From: Gammaproteobacteria bacterium
GTDB lineage: Bacteria; Pseudomonadota; Gammaproteobacteria; SURF-13
Length of the DNA stretch: 64,000 nucleotides
Reading direction: 5' to 3'
Assembly: GCA_030680605.1 (NCBI GenBank)
Contig: JAUXUQ010000010.1
Coordinates: forward strand, 148,826-212,825
Shown in pieces: positions 17,729 to 56,346 of this stretch. The position numbers were made by a program, and so were the translations under genes. The stretch's first letter is position 1. Every line of letters begins with the position of its first letter. Below the pieces are notes generated by a model that worked only from the letters and a program-made list of their open reading frames with translations, ran no database searches and was not told the DNA's origin.

Positions 17729-18616
17729 TTAGCCGCCGCCCGACAAGCGGTTGCCGCGCAGGAATTGCCAGGTGCGCGTGATATGCAGCACATCTGTTTC
17801 CTTGCGGATATTGTCCGGGAATTCGGCGAAAGGGGCGGCCAGGCGCACGATGGCGATGGCCGCGTCATCCAGCACCCTGTGCCCGGAGGAACGCCGCAAA
17901 GTGATGTTGTTGATGCTGCCGTCGGTATTGAGGGCCACATCAAGTATCAGGCTGCCGGAGAGGTTCCGCCGGCGTGCCTCGTCGGGATAATTCAGATTGC
18001 CTATGGTCTCCACTTTGCGCCGCCAGGCCTCCATGTAACTGGCATATTTGTACTCCCGTGTGGCAGCAGAGATGAATGTCTGGCGTGGCCGTTTGGCATA
18101 GATGGCGCGTGACTCGTCGAGCGCGGCAGAGAGGCTGTCGATTTGCATGCTGCGCGCGACAAGTTCGGCAGCAGATGGTGTTTCGGCAGGCGCTACAGAG
18201 GCCGCTTCATCCGGTATGGCCTCACGGGGTGTCGGCGTCTTTGCTGTGAGCCTGTTTTTCGGCGTGGGCTGGACGGGTGTGATTTCAGGCTGCGGTTGTG
18301 CCGCCGCAGCAGGTTCCTGCGGCGCGGGTTGGGCGGCGGGTGGCGGTGTCAGCGGTGTGGGTGTATCGACGTTACCGCCACCTTGTTGCTGTGCCTGGGC
18401 CAGAAAATCGGCGTGTGCGGGGGCGTCCGGTGTGCGCTGGTCGACCAGCGTGATCTCCATGCTGGGGAAAGGATTTTTGAGCGGTAGCGTGATGAGATCA
18501 AAGCGCACACCGAGGATAAGCAGTGCGTGCACAACCACTGCGAAAAACAACGTGAGCCCCAGCCTGTCATAGGCGGTGACAGGCGCTGGCAGGGGCAGTG
18601 TGGCAGTGACAGACAT
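17729..18616 (-). CDS. tonB: Energy transducer TonB (TonB3-like by position)
   Basis: N-terminal TM anchor, a Pro-rich spacer 'PTPLTPPPAAQPAPQEPAAAAQPQP', and a C-terminal TonB domain. It sits where tonB3 (PA0406) lies in P. aeruginosa. Confidence 0.8.
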   Translation of the reverse strand: MSVTATLPLPAPVTAYDRLGLTLFFAVVVHALLILGVRFDLITLPLKNPFPSMEITLVDQRTPDAPAHADFLAQAQQQGGGNVDTPTPLTPPPAAQPAPQEPAAAAQPQPEITPVQPTPKNRLTAKTPTPREAIPDEAASVAPAETPSAAELVARSMQIDSLSAALDESRAIYAKRPRQTFISAATREYKYASYMEAWRRKVETIGNLNYPDEARRRNLSGSLILDVALNTDGSINNITLRRSSGHRVLDDAAIAIVRLAAPFAEFPDNIRKETDVLHITRTWQFLRGNRLSGGG

Positions 18617-18620
18617 GGCT

Positions 18621-19136
18621 TCAAGTTACCCTGTCGAGCAGGGCTTGTGCAACCCTGCCACTGACCAGCCCGAACAGCAGGGCGGCAGTCATCAATACGG
18701 GCAGCAGGTGTAGCAGTGCCGGGTGGGGGATGAACAGTGCATAGGCGACAAAAAACTGGCCGGCCATGTGCGCAAGTGCGGCCAGCATGCTGTAGCCGAG
18801 GGCACCGAGACCCGTGCCCGGCAGGCGGGTTGACAGGGCATGGGCCACACCCAGCGCCAGTATGCCGCAGACCGCTCCGGACAGGCTCAAGATAAAGGTG
18901 GGAGAGAGGAAGGTGCCGAGCAGCAGGCTGCCGACCAGTACCCGCAACAGCGTAATCCAGGCCGCCATACGCCAGCCATAGCGCAGCAGTACCGCAATTG
19001 TGACCACATTGGCCAGCCCGGGTTTAATGCCGGGCAGGGGCGAAGGCAGTGCGCTTTCCGCGATGTGAATGCAGATGGCCAGCGCCGTGAGCCAGGCAAT
19101 CAGATGGTCTTCGCGGGTGGTGGTGAAGGCAGTCAT
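18621..19136 (-). CDS. Gx transporter family membrane protein (heptaprenyl-diphosphate-synthase component-I-like, PF07456)
   Basis: 171-aa polytopic membrane protein. It has a Gly-rich TM 'SGAVCGILALGVAHA', and 'LANVVTIAVLLRYGW' is characteristic of this family. Confidence 0.6.
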   Translation of the reverse strand: MTAFTTTREDHLIAWLTALAICIHIAESALPSPLPGIKPGLANVVTIAVLLRYGWRMAAWITLLRVLVGSLLLGTFLSPTFILSLSGAVCGILALGVAHALSTRLPGTGLGALGYSMLAALAHMAGQFFVAYALFIPHPALLHLLPVLMTAALLFGLVSGRVAQALLDRVT

Positions 19137-19197
19137 ATTTTATCGGCGCGTGGCAAGGTACAGCAAAAGGCCGGTGAGCATGATCCCGGGTATTGCA

Positions 19198-19566
19198 TCA
19201 GAAATTAATGGCGTCGAAGCGTGGTTCACGCCCAATCACCTGCACGGTGATACGGTTGGGCAGACAGGCCGCGACTTCACCGCCCAGTGCCAGCCAGCCG
19301 GTATGGATGCACTGCTTGCCCTGACATGGAGCGTCGACGAAACGAATCTTGCCGGCGCGGATTTCGAGTTCACTGATCCCCAGCGTGCCGGGGATATGCA
19401 GCCGCTGGTCTTTATACAGCGACACCACGCTGAACTCGCTGCCGCCGACCAGAATACGTGCCTGTTCGCCTTGCGTGGCGTCACCCCAGAAGCGGAGGTA
19501 CAGGAATGCCAGCAAGGCCAGCGCTGCAATCAGGATCACGCTATCGGCCCGGTTCAGTGCAAGCAT
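19198..19566 (-). CDS. NusG domain II-containing protein (DUF1312)
   Basis: 122 aa with an N-terminal signal anchor followed by a small beta domain containing conserved Cys ('DAPCQGKQCIHTGW'). A stereotyped partner of Gx-transporter and ApbE genes. Confidence 0.55.
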   Translation of the reverse strand: MLALNRADSVILIAALALLAFLYLRFWGDATQGEQARILVGGSEFSVVSLYKDQRLHIPGTLGISELEIRAGKIRFVDAPCQGKQCIHTGWLALGGEVAACLPNRITVQVIGREPRFDAINF

Positions 19567-20657
19567 TATAGCGCAGGGCTGATGACAAGTTCAGGCGCCG
19601 GTTCGATCTCAAAGCGGATGCGTTTTGCCAGCGCCGGGTCAATATGCACGGTGCCTTGGGCGTCGATCAGCATCACGTGTTTGACGCCCATGGCGTGTGC
19701 GATGCGCTGCCAGTCGTGTACGCCTGCGACCAGCAGTGCGGTGCTCGCGGCGTCTGCGGTGGTGGCGTCGTGCGCCAGCACGGTGACCGACAGTGTGCCT
19801 TGCGCGGGATAGCCGGTGCGCGGATCGAGCACATGGTGGTAGCGTTTGCCCGCGTACTCAAAATAACGTTCGTAGGTGCCGGAGGTAACGATGCTCTCAT
19901 CGCCTTGCAGTTCGATGGAGGCGAAGATGCCGCTGCCACGCGGGTTACGGATGCCAATGCGCCACGGGCGGTCACCGTGTTTGCCGATCACGCGAATATC
20001 GCCGCTGGCATTGACTATCGCATTCTCGACGCCCAGTGTGCGCAGGTGCGCGATGGCGACATCCACCGCATAACCCTGACCGATGGCGCCGACATCGAGT
20101 TGTACGGCTGGATTGGTGCTGTGCAATTGGTTGCCTTCTATCACCACAGCGTCCATGGTCGGGTGCTGTGTGAGCAGTGCGCTGATGACGGCAGGATCCG
20201 GCGGTGGACCTTTGGGTTCGTCGCTCTGAAATCCCCAGTACGCGAATAGCTGGCCGATGGCGGGATTGAACAGGTAATCACTGGCGCTGGACAGGGCGCG
20301 CGCCCGTTCAAGCAGCGGTATCATGTCGGGGTCAACGGAAAATGTCTGACCCGTGGCCAGTTGCGTGTTGATGCGGGTGAGTGGGCTGGGCAGCCACGCA
20401 TGCCAGGTGGTGTGGAAGTGGTTGAAGTCTGCCGTGATGGCATCGGCCGCCCGCCGGGCGGCGTCAGGCTCCAGGCCCCAGATGCTGATGTCTACCAGCG
20501 CACCCAGTGCCAGCAGTTGCTCCTGATACAAGGGCTCCGGCTTACTGCACGATACAGTGGTAAGCAGTGCGATGAGGCAGCAGAGTGGTGCGAATCGCGA
20601 GTGGCGAGTGGCGGGTGGAGAGGGTGCAATAAAAAGCCGGTTATGCACGATTTTCAT
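19566..20657 (-). CDS. apbE: FAD:protein FMN transferase ApbE, predicted lipoprotein
   Basis: ApbE-family motifs 'DVGAIGQGYAVD' and 'LIDAQGTVH', with lipobox 'LLTTVSC'. Start placed at ATG 20657 (MKIVHN...). The longer ORF from 20705 would overlap gshB by 65 nt. Confidence 0.8.
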   Translation of the reverse strand: MKIVHNRLFIAPSPPATRHSRFAPLCCLIALLTTVSCSKPEPLYQEQLLALGALVDISIWGLEPDAARRAADAITADFNHFHTTWHAWLPSPLTRINTQLATGQTFSVDPDMIPLLERARALSSASDYLFNPAIGQLFAYWGFQSDEPKGPPPDPAVISALLTQHPTMDAVVIEGNQLHSTNPAVQLDVGAIGQGYAVDVAIAHLRTLGVENAIVNASGDIRVIGKHGDRPWRIGIRNPRGSGIFASIELQGDESIVTSGTYERYFEYAGKRYHHVLDPRTGYPAQGTLSVTVLAHDATTADAASTALLVAGVHDWQRIAHAMGVKHVMLIDAQGTVHIDPALAKRIRFEIEPAPELVISPAL

Positions 20658-20690
20658 CGCTACTCGCCACTTGTTTTTCAACCACATCGA
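20586..20690 (-). repeat. Junction repeat element copy 2 (gshB/apbE), with inverted GTGGCGAG heptamers flanking ATGAAA
   Basis: On the minus strand the layout is caaGTGGCGAGTAGCg-ATGAAAATC-(41 nt)-CGCCACTCGCCACTCGC. The exact 17-mer CGCCACTCGCCACTCGC also occurs in copy 1. Confidence 0.7.
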
Positions 20691-21648
20691 GAAAAGTGTC
20701 TGCAATATTTAGTCCATACAACGCATCAAGTTCACGCACGCAGGTCGGGCTGGTGACATTGATCTCGGTGAGATAATCACCGATCACATCCAGGCCCGCG
20801 AACAGCAGTCCGCGCGTGCGCAACTCCGGCCCGACTTCGGCGCAGATCCAGCGGTCGCGGGCAGACAGCGGCACGCCTTCGCCGCGTCCGCCTGCGGCCA
20901 GATTGCCGCGGGTTTCGCCAGCAGCGGGAATACGGGCCAGTGCATAGGGCACGGGCTCGCCGTCAATCATCAGGATGCGCTTGTCGCCGGCGCTGATCTC
21001 GGGAATAAAGCGCTGAGCCATGATCAGGCTGGCGCCATTCTGCGTCAGGGTTTCGATCACGACATTAATGTTGGGGTCGCCGCTGCGCAGGCGGAATACC
21101 GACGCGCCGCCCATGCCGTGCAGGGGTTTGAAGATGGTGTCGCCGTGTTCGGTCACAAAGGCGCGCAGTGCCTGAGCGTTGCGCGTGACCAGCGTCGGTG
21201 GTGTGCACTGCGGAAACCAGGTGGCGAACAGCTTTTCATTGCAGTCGCGTAGCGCCTGGGGTTTGTTGATGACCTGTACTCCCGCTATTGCCGCACGTTC
21301 CAGCAGCTGGGTGGTATAGAGATACTCCATGTCAAAGGGCGGATCCTTGCGCAACAGGATGATATCAAGCGTATCGAGCGCAGTGAATTCCGCAGCGCCA
21401 AGCTCAAACCAGTGTTCGGCGTTGTCCTGCACGCTCAGTGTCCGTATCTGTGCAAACACGCGCCCGTCGCGCAGAAACAGGTCACCCTGCTCCATATAAT
21501 GCAACGACCAGTGGCGGCGCTGTGCCGCCAGCAGCATGGCGAAGGTAGTGTCTTTCTTGATGTTGATATCCGCGATGGGATCCATCACCACGCCAAGCTT
21601 GATGCGCGGGTGAGTAGCGAGTGGCGAGTGGCGAGAAAAATCTTTCAT
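20641..21648 (-). CDS. gshB: Glutathione synthetase
   Basis: 'RIKLGVVMDPIADINIKKDTTFAMLLAAQRR' matches the E. coli GshB N-terminus (MIKLGIVMDPIANINIKKDSS). An ATP-grasp C-terminal half is present. A 14-aa N-terminal extension is encoded by the repeat element. Confidence 0.9.
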   Translation of the reverse strand: MKDFSRHSPLATHPRIKLGVVMDPIADINIKKDTTFAMLLAAQRRHWSLHYMEQGDLFLRDGRVFAQIRTLSVQDNAEHWFELGAAEFTALDTLDIILLRKDPPFDMEYLYTTQLLERAAIAGVQVINKPQALRDCNEKLFATWFPQCTPPTLVTRNAQALRAFVTEHGDTIFKPLHGMGGASVFRLRSGDPNINVVIETLTQNGASLIMAQRFIPEISAGDKRILMIDGEPVPYALARIPAAGETRGNLAAGGRGEGVPLSARDRWICAEVGPELRTRGLLFAGLDVIGDYLTEINVTSPTCVRELDALYGLNIADTFLDVVEKQVASSDENRA

Positions 21649-21712
21649 AACCAGTCTTTGGGTGTCCCCTCGTTACTAGCCACTAGCCACTAGCTACTCG
21701 CCACTGCTTGCA
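21601..21712 (-). repeat. Junction repeat element copy 1 (gshA/gshB), with heptamer arrays
   Basis: On the minus strand the layout is GTGGCGAGTAGC + 3 further heptamers (TAGTGGC x2, TAGTAAC), then ATGAAAGAT, then CGCCACTCGCCACTCGC. It spans the gshA stop and the gshB start. Confidence 0.7.
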
Positions 21713-38075: not shown

Positions 38076-38390
38076 TTAGCTTATGGTGGTCTCGAGGGCG
38101 TCACGCCCGCCCAGATTATCTACCCAACTCAATGCGATGGTATCGCCTTTTTTCCCGCCCTTGAAGTTAAAGGCAATATAGGGATTTTTTGAGACGGCTA
38201 TGCCCCAGTCAGCTGACAACACAACAGCGCCATTATGCGTACAGGTGATTTCCTGGACGAAGTGCGCGGGGATCGGAGCACCGGTCTTTCTGTCCTTGAA
38301 CAGGCCGGTCTCCATCACGTGCAGAATCAGGGCCTTGACGGTGGTGACATCACCTTCCAGTGTTGCGCGTAGCTTGATGGTATCTGACAT
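38076..38390 (-). CDS. soxZ: Thiosulfate-oxidation carrier protein SoxZ
   Basis: 104 aa with SoxZ-like 'IKLRATLEGDVTTVKALI...FKGGKKGDTIALSWVDN'. Sits directly downstream of a soxY-like gene. Confidence 0.75.
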   Translation of the reverse strand: MSDTIKLRATLEGDVTTVKALILHVMETGLFKDRKTGAPIPAHFVQEITCTHNGAVVLSADWGIAVSKNPYIAFNFKGGKKGDTIALSWVDNLGGRDALETTIS

Positions 38391-38414
38391 AGAGTTTTTT
38401 GCCTGCTTCAGTCT

Positions 38415-38879
38415 TCAGTTGCCGCAGCCGTTCAGTACAACCCTGACTTTCTTGCGCGTGCTGTAGCGCCTGCCGCCCGCCACGACCACCGCCGTGACGT
38501 GCGAAGTCTGCGCCATTTTGATGTTGGCTTTGATGAACGGGTTGACGTTCGATCCAAGCTTGAAGTGGGCTACCAGGGCGCTCGGGTTCTTCTCCACCAG
38601 AATCAGGATGGCCTCGGCTTGGGGCAGAGAGCTTTCGATGGTGACCGGCACCACGGCGCCATTTTCGGCCAGATCCGTGACGCTCAGTTGTATCTTGTCA
38701 CCGGCCTCTACCGTCTCGCCGTCACCAAACAGGGCGCGCAACGCCCCATGGGAATTCCTCTCGCGGAAGGCCTCGACGGGCCAGGCGGCGACCGCCAGTC
38801 GCGGGAGGTACAACAGCATCCCCCCCAACGCGCTCGCCAGCGTGCCCAATAAAAAGCGTCGGCGTGAATTGTCCATCAC
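38415..38879 (-). CDS. soxY: Sulfur-carrier protein SoxY (Tat signal; variant C-terminus ...NGCGN)
   Basis: Twin-arginine signal 'NSRRRFLLGTLASALGG', a SoxY beta-sandwich region, and a C-terminal Cys within 'GCGN' (canonical is 'GGCGG'). Confidence 0.7.
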   Translation of the reverse strand: MMDNSRRRFLLGTLASALGGMLLYLPRLAVAAWPVEAFRERNSHGALRALFGDGETVEAGDKIQLSVTDLAENGAVVPVTIESSLPQAEAILILVEKNPSALVAHFKLGSNVNPFIKANIKMAQTSHVTAVVVAGGRRYSTRKKVRVVLNGCGN

Positions 38880-40443: not shown

Positions 40444-40538
40444 TGGTTAAGACCGCGCCGGCCGCTATCGGTTCAGGTGGGCGGTCCCGGGGCTCTCCTA
40501 TATACTGCGACAGTTTAACGTAACCTTTGGAAGGAAAC

Positions 40539-41927
40539 ATGCTCGCCGACCTGATTGCCCGTATTCCGGCCCGTGCCTGGGTTCTGGCCGCCCTGCTGAT
40601 CTGGGGTGGATTGGCCTTGCTGCTGTTGCGGCAGGACGGCTATGGCATCGAGGAGGGGGCGGCGCATGCCCTGTTGCTGAACTGGACGCTGATCGACAGC
40701 GTGGCCAGCCCGGTGTTTACCTTCGGTGTGCCGGATTTTCGCGCCGTGCTGTTCATCCCGGTGGCGGTCTACTGGTCAGGCAGCCTGCTGGCGGCCAAGG
40801 TGTTTACGTTGCTGATCACCTTTGGCGCCGGGCTGCTGTTTTACCGCTGGTGCAGCCGGACGGCGAGCCCGGAGGCCGCCCTGATCGCGACCGGTTTGTG
40901 GTTGATTGCGCCGATCACCCTATATGTCGCAAACAGCCTCGGCGCGGGCATTTATCTGGTGGCGCTGTTTGCACTGGGCGCCTGGCTGGATGAGGCCTAT
41001 CGCGCCGAGCCACGGCCTCTGGGAGGCAAATATTTTGCCCAGATGGTGCTGGCGGCCATCAGCGTGAGCCTGCACCCGGCAGGGCTGGCGCACCCGCTCG
41101 CGCTCGCCCTGCGCTGGCACAAGGCGCCACTCAGCCGCCGGGAGCAGCGGCAGGTTTTTATCGGGCTGGCGGTGGCGGTGGTTGCCGTCGTGCTGGTGCG
41201 CATGGGCTGGTCGGGTCTGGCGTGGTGGAGTAATCTGCTCCCCGTGTTGTCGGGGCTGCTCACTACGCCCGGCACCACCGTGGGCGATGCGGCGTACTGG
41301 CTGGGTTTTGTGGCGGGCGTACTGACCGTGTGGGTGCTGTGGGTGAAGCGCACGGCCTGGCTGCATGACACCACCGGTCTGATGCTGGTGCTGGGATTGG
41401 TGCTGGGGCTGAGTGCGACGGACAATACCTGGGCGCTGCTCGCGCTCACTGCCGTGATTTACTACGGCGTGCCGCAACTGATTGCGCTGAACAGCGCCTG
41501 GGGCGGTGACGGGCTGTGGCGTCAGCGCGGCGGGGTGTTGCTGCTGGTGATCGTCGTGGCCACGCTGTTCATGAGTCAGGACCGGCAACAGGCAGCGTAT
41601 GCCCGCGCTGCCCCGCTGGCGGCGCAGGATCGCTTGTTGCAGGCGCTGGTACTGGAGGCGGGAGATGAAAAACAGCCGTTTCGGGTAGCGAGTCAATGGC
41701 CGGCGCGCACCATGCTGGTCACCCGCCGCGATGCCTTGCCGCTACCCCCGGCGGCCAAAGACAGCGTGGCACAGTTACAGATGCTGTCCGGGGTGACCCA
41801 CCTGGTGTTTGATCCCTACCGGGTGGAGCGTGCCCTGGCGCGTAATCTTTCCGAACTGGGCGCCGAGATCGAAACCGTGGTGCGGCAGGAGGGTGGCGTG
41901 ATACTCAAGGTGCGCACGGCTGACTAG
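40539..41927 (+). CDS. Hypothetical polytopic membrane protein with a C-terminal soluble domain (possibly GT39/ArnT-like topology)
   Basis: At least 8 predicted TM helices in the first ~330 aa, then a ~130-aa hydrophilic tail. Strong SD 'GGAAGGAAAC' before ATG 40539. Confidence 0.5.
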   Translation: MLADLIARIPARAWVLAALLIWGGLALLLLRQDGYGIEEGAAHALLLNWTLIDSVASPVFTFGVPDFRAVLFIPVAVYWSGSLLAAKVFTLLITFGAGLLFYRWCSRTASPEAALIATGLWLIAPITLYVANSLGAGIYLVALFALGAWLDEAYRAEPRPLGGKYFAQMVLAAISVSLHPAGLAHPLALALRWHKAPLSRREQRQVFIGLAVAVVAVVLVRMGWSGLAWWSNLLPVLSGLLTTPGTTVGDAAYWLGFVAGVLTVWVLWVKRTAWLHDTTGLMLVLGLVLGLSATDNTWALLALTAVIYYGVPQLIALNSAWGGDGLWRQRGGVLLLVIVVATLFMSQDRQQAAYARAAPLAAQDRLLQALVLEAGDEKQPFRVASQWPARTMLVTRRDALPLPPAAKDSVAQLQMLSGVTHLVFDPYRVERALARNLSELGAEIETVVRQEGGVILKVRTAD

Positions 41928-43078: not shown

Positions 43079-43513
43079 ATGCTTCGAATCGAGTTCATGT
43101 TGTTGATCTACGCGTTTCTCGTCAACCTCCTGTGGGAGATGCTGCAGATGCCGCTGTTTACGTATCCTGTCACGGTAACTGTGTGGCAGGCCAGCCTGGA
43201 ATGCGCGCAGGTGTCGGCGGGCGATGCGCTGATGCTGCTGGTGTCGTTCTGGGGGGTCGCGCTGGTGCGGCAGAGCCGGCGCTGGATACTCCAGCCCACG
43301 GCCGGTGCGCTGGCCCTGTTTCTTGTGCCGGGCCTGGTCATGACGGTAGTATTTGAGGCGCTTGCCACGGGATCATGGAGCCGGTGGGAGTATTCCGCCG
43401 TCATGCCGGTGTTGCCAATTACAGGAACTGGTCTTGCGCCGTTGCTGCAGTGGTTGCTGTTGCCGCTGTTGATTGCGTGGCTGGTGCGGTGCTGGCCAGC
43501 TGGCGTAAGATGA
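43079..43513 (+). CDS. Hypothetical small (144 aa) 4-TM membrane protein
   Basis: SD GGAGA lies 8 nt before ATG 43079. Hydrophobic and Trp-rich. No family recognised. Confidence 0.4.
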   Translation: MLRIEFMLLIYAFLVNLLWEMLQMPLFTYPVTVTVWQASLECAQVSAGDALMLLVSFWGVALVRQSRRWILQPTAGALALFLVPGLVMTVVFEALATGSWSRWEYSAVMPVLPITGTGLAPLLQWLLLPLLIAWLVRCWPAGVR

Positions 43514-43615
43514 GTCGCGGGCAGCAGTTGTTGCGCCGTGAGTGATTTCATTCCTGCGCCTGTCCGTATACACTCACGCGGTTCCTGCCACTCACTCATC
43601 CTGATCGCCTGCCCT

Positions 43616-53902: not shown

Positions 53903-55117
53903 TCAATCCGGGTTCGTAGTGCAGCGACGCATGACGTACAACCACAGCATGCCGAACAGAATGAGCACGCCAAAGCCGAATGCGACATACGTAATTGATA
54001 CGCCCGTGCCGATGATCAGGGTATACAGCCCGACCAGCACCAGCATGGCAATATTCTCGCTGAAATTCTGTACCGCAACCGCATGCCCGGCACCGACCGT
54101 TTCATGACCGCGCTCCTGCAACAGCGCATTTAGCGGCACCACAAACATGCCGCCGCAAGCGCCGATCAGCACCAGCAGGACAATACCGGTATAGATATCC
54201 TGCACGAAGGCAAGCGCCATGACCACACACCCCAGCAGCAGACCGGGGTAGAGCACGCGGTTTACCGTCGGCAGGGTGATGTAACGGGCGGCGAGTAGCG
54301 CCCCCAGCGCGATCCCCACCGCTACGACTCCACTCAAATTGGCCGGGGTTTTGTTGTCGCTGATCAGCAGCGCTATCGGCACCCAGGCCACCAGCAGAAA
54401 ACGCAAGGTGCTGCCGCTGCCCCAGAATAAACTGGTGCCGACCAGTGAGAAGCGTGCGTCACGGTTGCGGTACAGGGTAGACAAGGCAAGGCGAAAATCC
54501 TTGACCAGTACCTGCAAGCCCGTGCGCTGTAACGGGTGCTCGGGTGCGAGGCGCGGAATCAGGAGATTGCTGAGCGCTGCCAGCAGATAACAGAGGGTGA
54601 TGGAGACCAGCGCCAGTTGTACCGAGATGTCAGCGAGTATGCCGCCTGCCACAGCGCCCAGCAGAATGGCAATGATGGTGGAGCCTTCCATCAGGCTGTT
54701 GGCCTTGACCAGCTGATCGGTGCTGACCAGTTGGCGCAGAATGCCGTATTTCGCCGGCGAATAGGCGGCGGCGCCCAGCCCCACCAGACCGTAGGCCAGC
54801 CAGGGATTGAGTCCGCCCAGCATCGCTGCGGCGCCAAAGAATTTCAGGCCATTGCCCAGCATCATCACCCGCCCTTTGGGAAAGCTGTCGGCGAAGGGCC
54901 CGACAAAGGGCGCGAACACAATAAAGGCCAGAATAAAAAACTCCTGCAACAGCGGTGCGTGCCAGTTTTGGTAGGTGGCCAGTGATTTGACCAGTGCAAT
55001 CGCGGCAAACAACAGTGCGTTATCCGCCAGGGCGGACAGAAACTGTGCCACCAGCACGGCCAGTATCGGGCGCGACATGAGTTTTACATCCAGGGTGTTA
55101 TTGGCAAGGCTGGTCAT
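53903..55117 (-). CDS. lplT: Lysophospholipid transporter LplT (MFS)
   Basis: 12-TM MFS protein in the same operon as aas. Confidence 0.8.
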   Translation of the reverse strand: MTSLANNTLDVKLMSRPILAVLVAQFLSALADNALLFAAIALVKSLATYQNWHAPLLQEFFILAFIVFAPFVGPFADSFPKGRVMMLGNGLKFFGAAAMLGGLNPWLAYGLVGLGAAAYSPAKYGILRQLVSTDQLVKANSLMEGSTIIAILLGAVAGGILADISVQLALVSITLCYLLAALSNLLIPRLAPEHPLQRTGLQVLVKDFRLALSTLYRNRDARFSLVGTSLFWGSGSTLRFLLVAWVPIALLISDNKTPANLSGVVAVGIALGALLAARYITLPTVNRVLYPGLLLGCVVMALAFVQDIYTGIVLLVLIGACGGMFVVPLNALLQERGHETVGAGHAVAVQNFSENIAMLVLVGLYTLIIGTGVSITYVAFGFGVLILFGMLWLYVMRRCTTNPD

Positions 55118-56346
55118 GTGGGTTTGAAAAATGTACGGGTTTCAAAAATGGAGCGGGCAAACTGTCTGGCGCCAAGGCGTAGCTGGCGCTTGGTGACAAA
55201 ATCAAACAGCAATGGGTTGTAGGTGCGCAGCGCTTGCAGAATGGGTACGGCGGCGGCATCCAGCAACTGCAAGTCAACCAGCAGGCGCATTGAGAACAGC
55301 GGCATGACGCCGGGTAGCGGGTAGTCCGAACCGTTGAGCAGTCGCGCGTGCCAGTCATCACGTTGCAGTACCCGTTTGAGATGGTGCGCGCGGTTGGTCT
55401 GCGTCATGGCCGAGATGTCGCCAAACAATTTGCCATAGTAGCGCGGGTCATCCATAAGGCGCTCGAACAAATCGATGCTGTCCACCCACGGGCCGTTTGT
55501 GCCGCGATCCAGGTCGCGATCCTGGCCCAGCGAGGCGCAGTGTGCTGTTACTACGCGCACGCCGTGCTCCAGGGCGCGGCGCAACCTGAGCGGGTTGCCG
55601 TATTCCTGGTGGTTGCCACCGTGCAAGGCACGCTCAGTGCCCGCATGGGTAATGAGCGAAATGTCATGCCGGGCCAGCGCCGCATAAAAGCGGTCACACA
55701 ACGGCGAGGCGGGATCAATACCCATTGCCGCTGGCAGCCATTTTATGGCGCGCGCACCCTGGGTAACGGCATCATCCAGGGCCGCTACGCAATCACGCCG
55801 GTAGGGATGGATAGAGGCCACCCACTCGTACCAATCCGGGTGTTGCTGCGCCACCTGGCGGGCGTAATTGTTCGGTGTATAAAGTGTGGTGCGGCGCTCA
55901 TCGGGTGCGCCGGCCTCGGTGTAGTAGCGGTCAAAGGCCAGCAACAGCAGCTTGCTGCCGTTGCGCATGTCCCCCATCAGGCGGTTCATGCGCCGCAGAT
56001 AACCCCGGTCAATTCCATCGCTGCCGCCGCTGGCGCAGCCGCCATTCAGAAAGAATCGCTTTTGCGCATATTGAACCGGGTGTAACAGACTGTCCATGTC
56101 AATGCTCACCCGGATACCACTGCCGCTGTCGCCGGTACCTATGAGGTGGGCATGGCTGTCCCAGACATTCTCGGGGCGCAGTCCGTGCCATGCGGCCTGC
56201 ACCAGTTCATGTTGCGCGAGACGGCTCGGTAAACTATCGAGACAGGGATTGATGAAACCTTGTTCCGGCCATAGCCGCCAGCCGGTCACGCCCAGCACCG
56301 GCAGTGCAAGTGCGGCCCCGCCCCGCAGGAAATCCCGCCGCTTCAT
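55114..56346 (-). CDS. Tat-exported amidohydrolase-family (amidohydrolase_2-like) metal-dependent hydrolase
   Basis: 'MKRRDFLRGGAALALPVLG' Tat signal with a TIM-barrel hydrolase His/Asp pattern. Four-base ATGA overlaps on both sides with aas and lplT. Confidence 0.65.
   Translation of the reverse strand: MKRRDFLRGGAALALPVLGVTGWRLWPEQGFINPCLDSLPSRLAQHELVQAAWHGLRPENVWDSHAHLIGTGDSGSGIRVSIDMDSLLHPVQYAQKRFFLNGGCASGGSDGIDRGYLRRMNRLMGDMRNGSKLLLLAFDRYYTEAGAPDERRTTLYTPNNYARQVAQQHPDWYEWVASIHPYRRDCVAALDDAVTQGARAIKWLPAAMGIDPASPLCDRFYAALARHDISLITHAGTERALHGGNHQEYGNPLRLRRALEHGVRVVTAHCASLGQDRDLDRGTNGPWVDSIDLFERLMDDPRYYGKLFGDISAMTQTNRAHHLKRVLQRDDWHARLLNGSDYPLPGVMPLFSMRLLVDLQLLDAAAVPILQALRTYNPLLFDFVTKRQLRLGARQFARSIFETRTFFKPT

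Follow-up and report, generated by a model that had tools for sequence, protein, structure and literature searches.

A probable extracytoplasmic flavinylation module between gshB and a tonB3-like gene in a gammaproteobacterium: a gene triad in the usual place for its lineage

What is an ApbE-type flavin transferase doing, together with two small membrane proteins, between the glutathione synthase gene gshB and a tonB3-like gene, with the genes of the Pil-Chp cluster diverging close by, and is this location as odd as it looks? The question is raised by a 64-kb stretch of a gammaproteobacterial genome (assembly GCA_030680605.1, contig JAUXUQ010000010.1, positions 148,826 to 212,825; this whole stretch is hereafter the window, and its own numbering is used throughout). 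Three consecutive minus-strand genes in it encode members of PF02424 (apbE, 19566-20657), PF07009 (an eetA-like gene for a predicted single-pass membrane protein of the NusG_II/DUF1312 family, 19198-19566) and PF07456 (an eetB-like gene for a 'Gx transporter', modelled as a six-helix protein of the S-component type of energy-coupling factor (ECF) transporters, 18621-19136). We argue that this triad is probably a housekeeping module for extracytoplasmic flavinylation, orthologous in parts to FmnB/EetA/EetB of Listeria monocytogenes, and that its position is the norm within its own lineage. A first-pass annotation of the window, made from the letters and their translations, had placed three open reading frames (ORFs) on the same strand between gshB and the tonB3-like gene, and ORF and family calls bear this out: all three proteins match the profiles that it had named for them. 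On a Logan contig of identical sequence, a separate gene call yields the same three products (363, 122 and 171 amino acids), and the NCBI product names at the triad include "Gx transporter family protein" and "NusG domain II-containing protein".

ApbE, 363 residues long when read from the ATG at 20657 (the longest-ORF alternative is a TTG at 20705), matches PF02424 with an E value of 2.4e-76 (257 bits, cutoff 25.6) and has homologues in the PDB at E values from 1e-43 to 1e-25, including TM1553 (1vrm, 1e-43) and Vibrio cholerae ApbE (6nxi, 2e-33), with Treponema pallidum Ftp (4ifu) and Escherichia coli 2o18 also among them. The RY-x-H-x-x-DP motif is kept (RYHHVLDPRTG aligned with RYSHIIDPTTG), the region of the catalytic histidine, RYHHVLDPRTGYP, aligns with RYSHIIDPTTGRP in 6nxi, and the metal- and flavin adenine dinucleotide (FAD)-binding T-A-D motif retains TTAD (ATTADAAST aligned with CMTADGLAT of 6nxi). 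The roles of the histidine and of the T-A-D residues are presumably those that they have in the V. cholerae and T. pallidum structures. Judged by its sequence, the protein is a member of the FAD:protein flavin mononucleotide (FMN) transferase family (EC 2.7.1.180) and not an orthologue of the E. coli type, for it scores 109.8 bits against PRK10461, the NCBIfam equivalog for E. coli ApbE, where the cutoff is 498. Its N-terminus reads as a basic n-region (TRHSRF), an h-region (APLCCLIALLTTV) and then SC, giving a lipobox-like TVSC, and at least 38 of 59 orthologues have canonical lipoboxes (e.g. LLTAC and LLAGC). The orthologue in Alkalilimnicola ehrlichii is scored LIPO(Sec/SPII) by SignalP in a published survey (Rivera-Lugo et al. 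2023, PMC9973259, Data Set S1). ApbE is therefore predicted to be a periplasmic lipoprotein acting outside the cytoplasm, as the first-pass annotation had proposed.

The 122-residue product of the second gene matches PF07009 (NusG_II; E 4.3e-22, 78.7 bits, cutoff 29.6), a family that carries the label EetA in the same data set (PMC9973259), and resembles in sequence the R. gnavus DUF1312 structure 4ESN (E 4.6e-7). In an AlphaFold2 model (predicted local distance difference test score 84.8), a transmembrane helix at residues 6-27 precedes a beta domain, and Foldseek returns 4esn with a target-normalised template-modelling score of 0.87-0.89, in addition to Aquifex NusG domain II and Lin0431; by this model, EetA is a single-pass membrane protein with a DUF1312 fold. 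The signal anchor and conserved cysteine pair already ascribed to it correspond to this helix and to C81 and C86, which are invariant, with C101-L-P-N and D118, in homologues ranging from Gammaproteobacteria to a Clostridia homologue, while H88 and W91 are near-invariant. Residues 81-104 carry a C-x4-C-x-H...C-L-P-N motif in common with the Clostridia DUF1312 structure 4ESN; a metal site and a disulfide are both conceivable for this motif.

The third product, EetB (171 residues), covers positions 1-146 of the 147 in the PF07456 model (E 1.7e-35, 122.6 bits, cutoff 30). Since a sequence search against the PDB gave no match, a fold search was used, and the structure model has the fold of an ECF S-component, with RibU as a close structural match and BtuM among the matches; EetB would thus be a six-helix membrane protein of the ECF-S type. 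What such a protein may do here comes from Listeria, in which EetB, also a PF07456 member, is ECF-S-like, binds FAD and is needed for FAD export to the ApbE-like FmnB (Rivera-Lugo et al. 2023, PMC9973259). In that study eetB homologues are defined as PF07456, and by this analogy we infer that the protein encoded in the window exports FAD, its direction of transport being read across from Listeria.

Put together, these assignments suggest a simple scheme. EetB would carry cytoplasmic FAD over the inner membrane to its periplasmic face, EetA would accompany it as a single-pass accessory protein with its DUF1312 beta domain, and the lipoprotein ApbE, on the periplasmic face, would use this FAD to put FMN on a threonine or serine of redox proteins encoded elsewhere. 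The family matches, the homology of ApbE, the folds and the Listeria work (PMC9973259) all support the initial view of the triad as an extracytoplasmic flavinylation or flavin-trafficking module. The closest known parallel is the extracellular electron transfer locus of L. monocytogenes with its flavin-trafficking genes FmnB, EetA and EetB (Light et al. 2018; Rivera-Lugo et al. 2023, PMC9973259), where PF02424, PF07009 and PF07456 likewise stand side by side and encode a lipoprotein ApbE, a single-pass DUF1312 EetA and an EetB with an ECF-S fold. In contrast to that locus, the triad has no FmnA (the ECF-T protein), PplA (an FMN_bind lipoprotein), Ndh2 or DmkA/DmkB nearby, so that this is not an extracellular electron transfer locus; moreover, the host is a Gram-negative sulfur oxidiser, hence the periplasm as the destination of the flavin. 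The apbE genes linked to nqr or rnf (e.g. V. cholerae nqrABCDEF-apbE) encode enzymes of the same family with the same catalytic motifs, but they lie beside their substrate and without EetA or EetB, whereas the apbE of the window has a putative FAD exporter gene for a neighbour and no substrate gene nearby. Bfe, a FAD exporter of the MATE (multidrug and toxic compound extrusion) family in Shewanella, has a similar proposed role in supplying FAD to a Gram-negative periplasm (mentioned in PMC9973259), yet belongs to an unrelated protein family and is not linked to apbE.

The triad is embedded in a minus-strand row of genes that runs through 13.9-23 kb in the order pyrC'-like, pyrB, pyrR, ruvX, algH/DUF179, tonB, eetB, eetA, apbE, gshB and gshA, with pilG, pilH, pilI and pilJ running divergently from it on the plus strand. 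Downstream of eetB and 4 nucleotides (nt) away lies the tonB3-like gene (17729-18616, minus strand; PF03544 TonB_C, E 1.5e-15), a conserved neighbour whose position does not imply membership of the module. Upstream, gshB (20641-21648, minus strand; TIGR01380 and PRK05246 equivalogs, E about 1e-139) overlaps apbE by 17 nt, its stop codon lying at 20641-20643 and the apbE ATG at 20655-20657. Within the triad, the apbE stop and the eetA start overlap by 1 nt and a gap of 61 nt separates eetA from eetB. Given this tight spacing, and given that promoter and terminator scans of 16.5-24 kb returned no signal above chance, apbE, eetA and eetB are probably transcribed together, with translational coupling, as part of a long gshA-gshB-apbE-eetA-eetB-tonB-algH-ruvX-pyrR-pyrB unit.

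How unusual this arrangement is was addressed by a pattern scan of one genome per species, built on an alignment of 24 homologues of EetB; of the 600 matching stretches listed, at least 558 code for a close relative of EetB. For synteny, the best 80 loci were retained and the proteins of the window mapped onto them by tblastn; they come from gammaproteobacterial or unclassified metagenome-assembled genomes and are labelled Chromatiales, Chromatiaceae, Ectothiorhodospiraceae, Thiohalomonadales or unclassified Gammaproteobacteria. Among the 67 loci with enough upstream sequence to be informative, apbE-eetA-eetB is contiguous in about 49, that is, 45 by the strict rule of the script plus four with an overlap of a few bases or a gap of 400-540 nt (L014, L019, L071 and L075). 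Four others have the triad split by 1-8 kb inserted between eetA and eetB (L018, L026, L027 and L041), the insert in L027 consisting of opposite-strand genes unrelated to the triad, for an M48 peptidase, a pyruvate:ferredoxin oxidoreductase, a GltD-like oxidoreductase and a phosphoglucomutase. In the remaining 14, eetB has no apbE or eetA upstream. The flanks are no less regular, with tonB directly after eetB in 65 of 72 loci, gshB directly before apbE in 45 of 48, and pilG-pilH-pilI diverging from gshB or gshA in most of the loci that extend that far. As eetB-tonB is retained where apbE-eetA is missing or separated, eetB seems to be anchored to tonB and apbE-eetA to be the mobile part. As a side observation, gshB and pilG are separated by a gshA of the ferrooxidans type (TIGR02049; 21690-22930 in the window) both here and in about 22 related loci, and elsewhere pilG abuts gshB.

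These counts overturn one part of the first-pass annotation, which had called the placement between tonB3 and the Pil-Chp cluster unusual and the triad an insertion, and had set beforehand a universal presence of the triad at this position in the lineage, next to an Rnf/Nqr operon just outside the window, as one outcome that would speak against this. The synteny comparison bears out the first half of it: the order is the same in about 49 of the 67 informative loci, and the supposed insertion is the standard arrangement of the lineage. The contrast had been drawn with Pseudomonas aeruginosa, in which tonB3 is indeed PA0406 in the literature; in strain PAO1 tonB3 abuts gshB, and the block gshB-tonB3-algH-ruvX-pyrR-pyrB (PA0401-PA0408) lacks the triad. 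Compared with P. aeruginosa, the triad is then an addition; in the lineage to which it belongs, the arrangement is normal and no insertion. The same order, pyrB-pyrR-ruvX-DUF179-tonB-eetB-eetA-apbE-gshB with divergent pilG-pilH-pilI, can be read for A. ehrlichii in Data Set S1 of PMC9973259, so that the triad had already been published, this synteny included, under the names FmnB/ApbE, EetA and EetB. In A. ehrlichii MLHE-1 (NC_008340, genes 349-360), whose EetB, EetA and ApbE have 182, 121 and 351 residues, the gene order is identical, the difference being that of the two genomes only that of the window has gshA between gshB and pilG and hairpins at the gshA/gshB and gshB/apbE junctions (see below).

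If ApbE flavinylates, its targets should be sought outside the locus. Matches to the flavinylation motif D-x-x-[ST]-G-A-[ST] in the window and the 80 loci fall only in ProC, in a CheA-like domain and in spurious ORFs, and none of the proteins neighbouring the triad (gshB, tonB, pil and other products) has it. Ten otherwise unidentified ORFs of the window contain no FMN_bind, Rnf or Nqr protein by Pfam. The earlier statement that the window holds no substrate is thus sustained by both motif scan and Pfam and extends to the neighbourhoods of the related loci. Because cultured Ectothiorhodospiraceae (Thioalkalivibrio) encode rnfABCDGE, RnfG and RnfD would be the most likely targets. In the literature, a 2025 review of ApbE does not discuss FAD export, a paper on the evolution of Nqr does not mention the taxa studied here, and no Alkalilimnicola entry was found in the supplements of Méheust et al. 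(2021).

Several observations weigh against the triad being a flavinylation module of this kind. The motif scan reveals no site in any real gene in six frames of the window and no substrate within 10 kb on either side of the 80 related loci. Nor is there an ECF-T or ECF-A gene in the window or in these flanks, which are conserved and leave no space for one; as FAD export by EetB in Listeria also requires the ECF-T protein FmnA and EcfA/A' (PMC9973259), the locus does not account for the energisation step. The three genes are also not inseparable. In seven loci (L004-L006, L029, L055, L074 and L077) eetB stands beside tonB with no apbE-eetA in the upstream sequence, up to about 10 kb of it, two ORFs examined upstream of eetB in L005 (7786-8541 and 8637-9242) having no Pfam match. 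In seven more, Beggiatoales-like (L046, L048, L052, L054, L061, L062 and L078), an eetB whose product is 56-67% identical occurs alone in variable contexts; in these genomes, of Thiomargarita, Thioploca, Marithrix and Albibeggiatoa, neither eetA nor apbE nor tonB can be recognised next to it, and in L052 and L062 it lies among genes for a caspase-like protein, RNase R, PhoX, phosphofructokinase and a type II secretion pseudopilin. EetB can therefore persist apart from ApbE. Finally, the experimental support for an export role of PF07456 comes from Listeria EetB only, and deletion of eetA in Listeria has no phenotype. EetA-EetB fusion proteins have been published.

The missing ECF genes can be accommodated in two ways, neither of which we would hold more than tentatively. 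EetB might dock onto an ECF-T/EcfA-A' module whose genes lie at some other genomic site and drive FAD export with ATP as in Listeria, a variant of the flavinylation scheme that its dependence on FmnA and EcfA/A' there would favour. Physical separation would be nothing out of the ordinary, for in a survey of 4,214 genomes eetB adjoins eetA in 3,328 and apbE in 2,169 but an ECF-T gene in only 291 (PMC9973259). A14-x3-A18 in helix 1 is moreover invariant in the gammaproteobacterial EetBs of the alignment of 24 homologues. An Ala-x3-Ala motif mediates contact between S-component and EcfT in ThiT and RibU, and its presence in EetB hints, if weakly, at a contact of the ECF-T type. What speaks against such a module, besides its absence from the window and from the conserved flanks, is that a solitary S-component, BtuM, is among the structural matches of EetB, that shared group-II ECF modules are reportedly rare in Gammaproteobacteria and that solitary S-components (BtuM, solitary BioY) occur mainly in Proteobacteria. 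About as plausible, and hence just as doubtful, is that EetA and EetB form, in this clade of sulfur-oxidising Gammaproteobacteria, a stand-alone FAD exporter that works without any ECF module and passes its FAD straight to the lipoprotein ApbE; EetA might then replace the ECF-T scaffold or serve as an adaptor for the hand-over. BtuM and BioY are imperfect precedents here since they import B12 or biotin, and we know of no solitary ECF-S-type exporter shown to work alone.

The remaining alternatives abandon flavin export or flavinylation altogether. Almost every ECF-S protein that has been characterised is an importer, the structural matches of EetB include RibU as a close one, and T. pallidum Ftp, a periplasmic FAD pyrophosphatase, is among the homologues of ApbE, all of which would fit a salvage route in which ApbE cleaves FAD and EetB imports FMN or riboflavin. 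We nevertheless consider it unlikely: the one PF07456 protein with a characterised function is an exporter of FAD, supply of ApbE better explains why EetB is so strictly paired with a lipoprotein ApbE in many species, and the host, to judge by SoxYZ in the window, is a free-living sulfur oxidiser and can be assumed to make its own flavins. A functional tie to the neighbours, be it TonB3, type IV pili and Pil-Chp signalling or glutathione synthesis, might be read from the constant adjacency of gshB and tonB and from the probable co-transcription, but in a long housekeeping operon a constant gene order is no evidence of common function, no neighbour has a flavinylation motif and P. aeruginosa PAO1 has the block without the triad; such a tie is very improbable. 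Lastly, PF07456 goes by the legacy name of heptaprenyl diphosphate synthase component I in Pfam and KEGG, and many homologues are so named by JGI, which would place the protein in the biosynthesis of isoprenoid quinones. There is no adjacent polyprenyl synthase (component II) and the modelled fold is that of an ECF S-component, and this reading is effectively refuted.

If the triad itself is commonplace, what is more out of the ordinary at this locus may be the pair of hairpins in which gshB and apbE have their start codons. Two elements of about 94 nt each, 78% identical in alignment, flank gshB in mutually inverted orientation. Copy A (20590-20683; inverted repeat I1, 94 nt, 71% complementary) takes in the stop codon of gshB together with the start of apbE, and the overlap of the triad with gshB through a repeat element, as noted in the first-pass annotation, is the 17-nt overlap inside it; copy B (21608-21701) spans the gshA stop and the gshB start. 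Each has arms of tandem heptads, GTGGCGA / TCGCCAC, around a loop of about 45 nt, and the predicted RNA folds have energies of -35.4 kcal/mol (z -3.8) for copy A and -47.3 kcal/mol (z -5.4) for copy B, the z scores being relative to shuffled sequence. The two junctions are built alike. The upstream gene, gshA or gshB, ends with ...VASS in the 5' arm (21690-21704 and 20641-20670, respectively) and the ATG of the downstream gene lies in the loop, at 21648 for gshB and 20657 for apbE. The 3' arm of copy A encodes the n-region of the ApbE signal peptide (PPATRHSRF), and that of copy B a 15-residue N-terminal extension of GshB, MKDFSRHSPLATHPR (21604-21648), ahead of IKLGVVMDP, the usual start of the protein by comparison with E. 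coli GshB. The element has thus been absorbed into three coding sequences, supplying the ends of gshA and gshB, the GshB extension and the ApbE n-region.

Related copies occur at the same junctions in two of the 80 loci, L008 (7215-7365) and L060 (3800-3920), and a scan of metagenome contigs with the exact pattern gave at least 120 stretches (L082-L201) with the same heptad arms and unrelated loops. The matches listed lie on contigs of 43-75% G+C, usually one per contig, and in mixed orientations according to a crude analysis of their ORF context. The one match in an Rfam scan of 16.5-24 kb, to mir-483, is a chance one, its 24.8 bits falling short of the gathering score of 60, and a literature search for the hairpin sequence found no paper containing it.

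Elsewhere in the window, a SoxY gene (PF13501) at 38076-38879 on the minus strand stands beside an ORF read as SoxZ from its sequence, as fits a sulfur-oxidising gammaproteobacterium. Three ORFs, 55114-56346 (minus strand), 40527-41927 (plus strand) and 43108-43599 (minus strand), have no Pfam match; one of them encodes a 410-residue protein with a twin-arginine-like signal, MKRRDFLRGGAALALP, whose neighbours were read, from their start sequences alone, as an LplT-like gene of the major facilitator superfamily and an Aas-like gene.

As found, the locus itself matters little, for it is a known and published module in the usual place for its lineage. Its residual value is as a pointer, EetB having many close relatives among the stretches listed and no ECF module lying near the 80 loci retained. 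If EetA and EetB do act on their own, EetB would be the first S-component to act alone in export, and this would explain how FAD is supplied to the periplasm for flavinylation of Rnf, Nqr or NosR in Gram-negative bacteria lacking Bfe.

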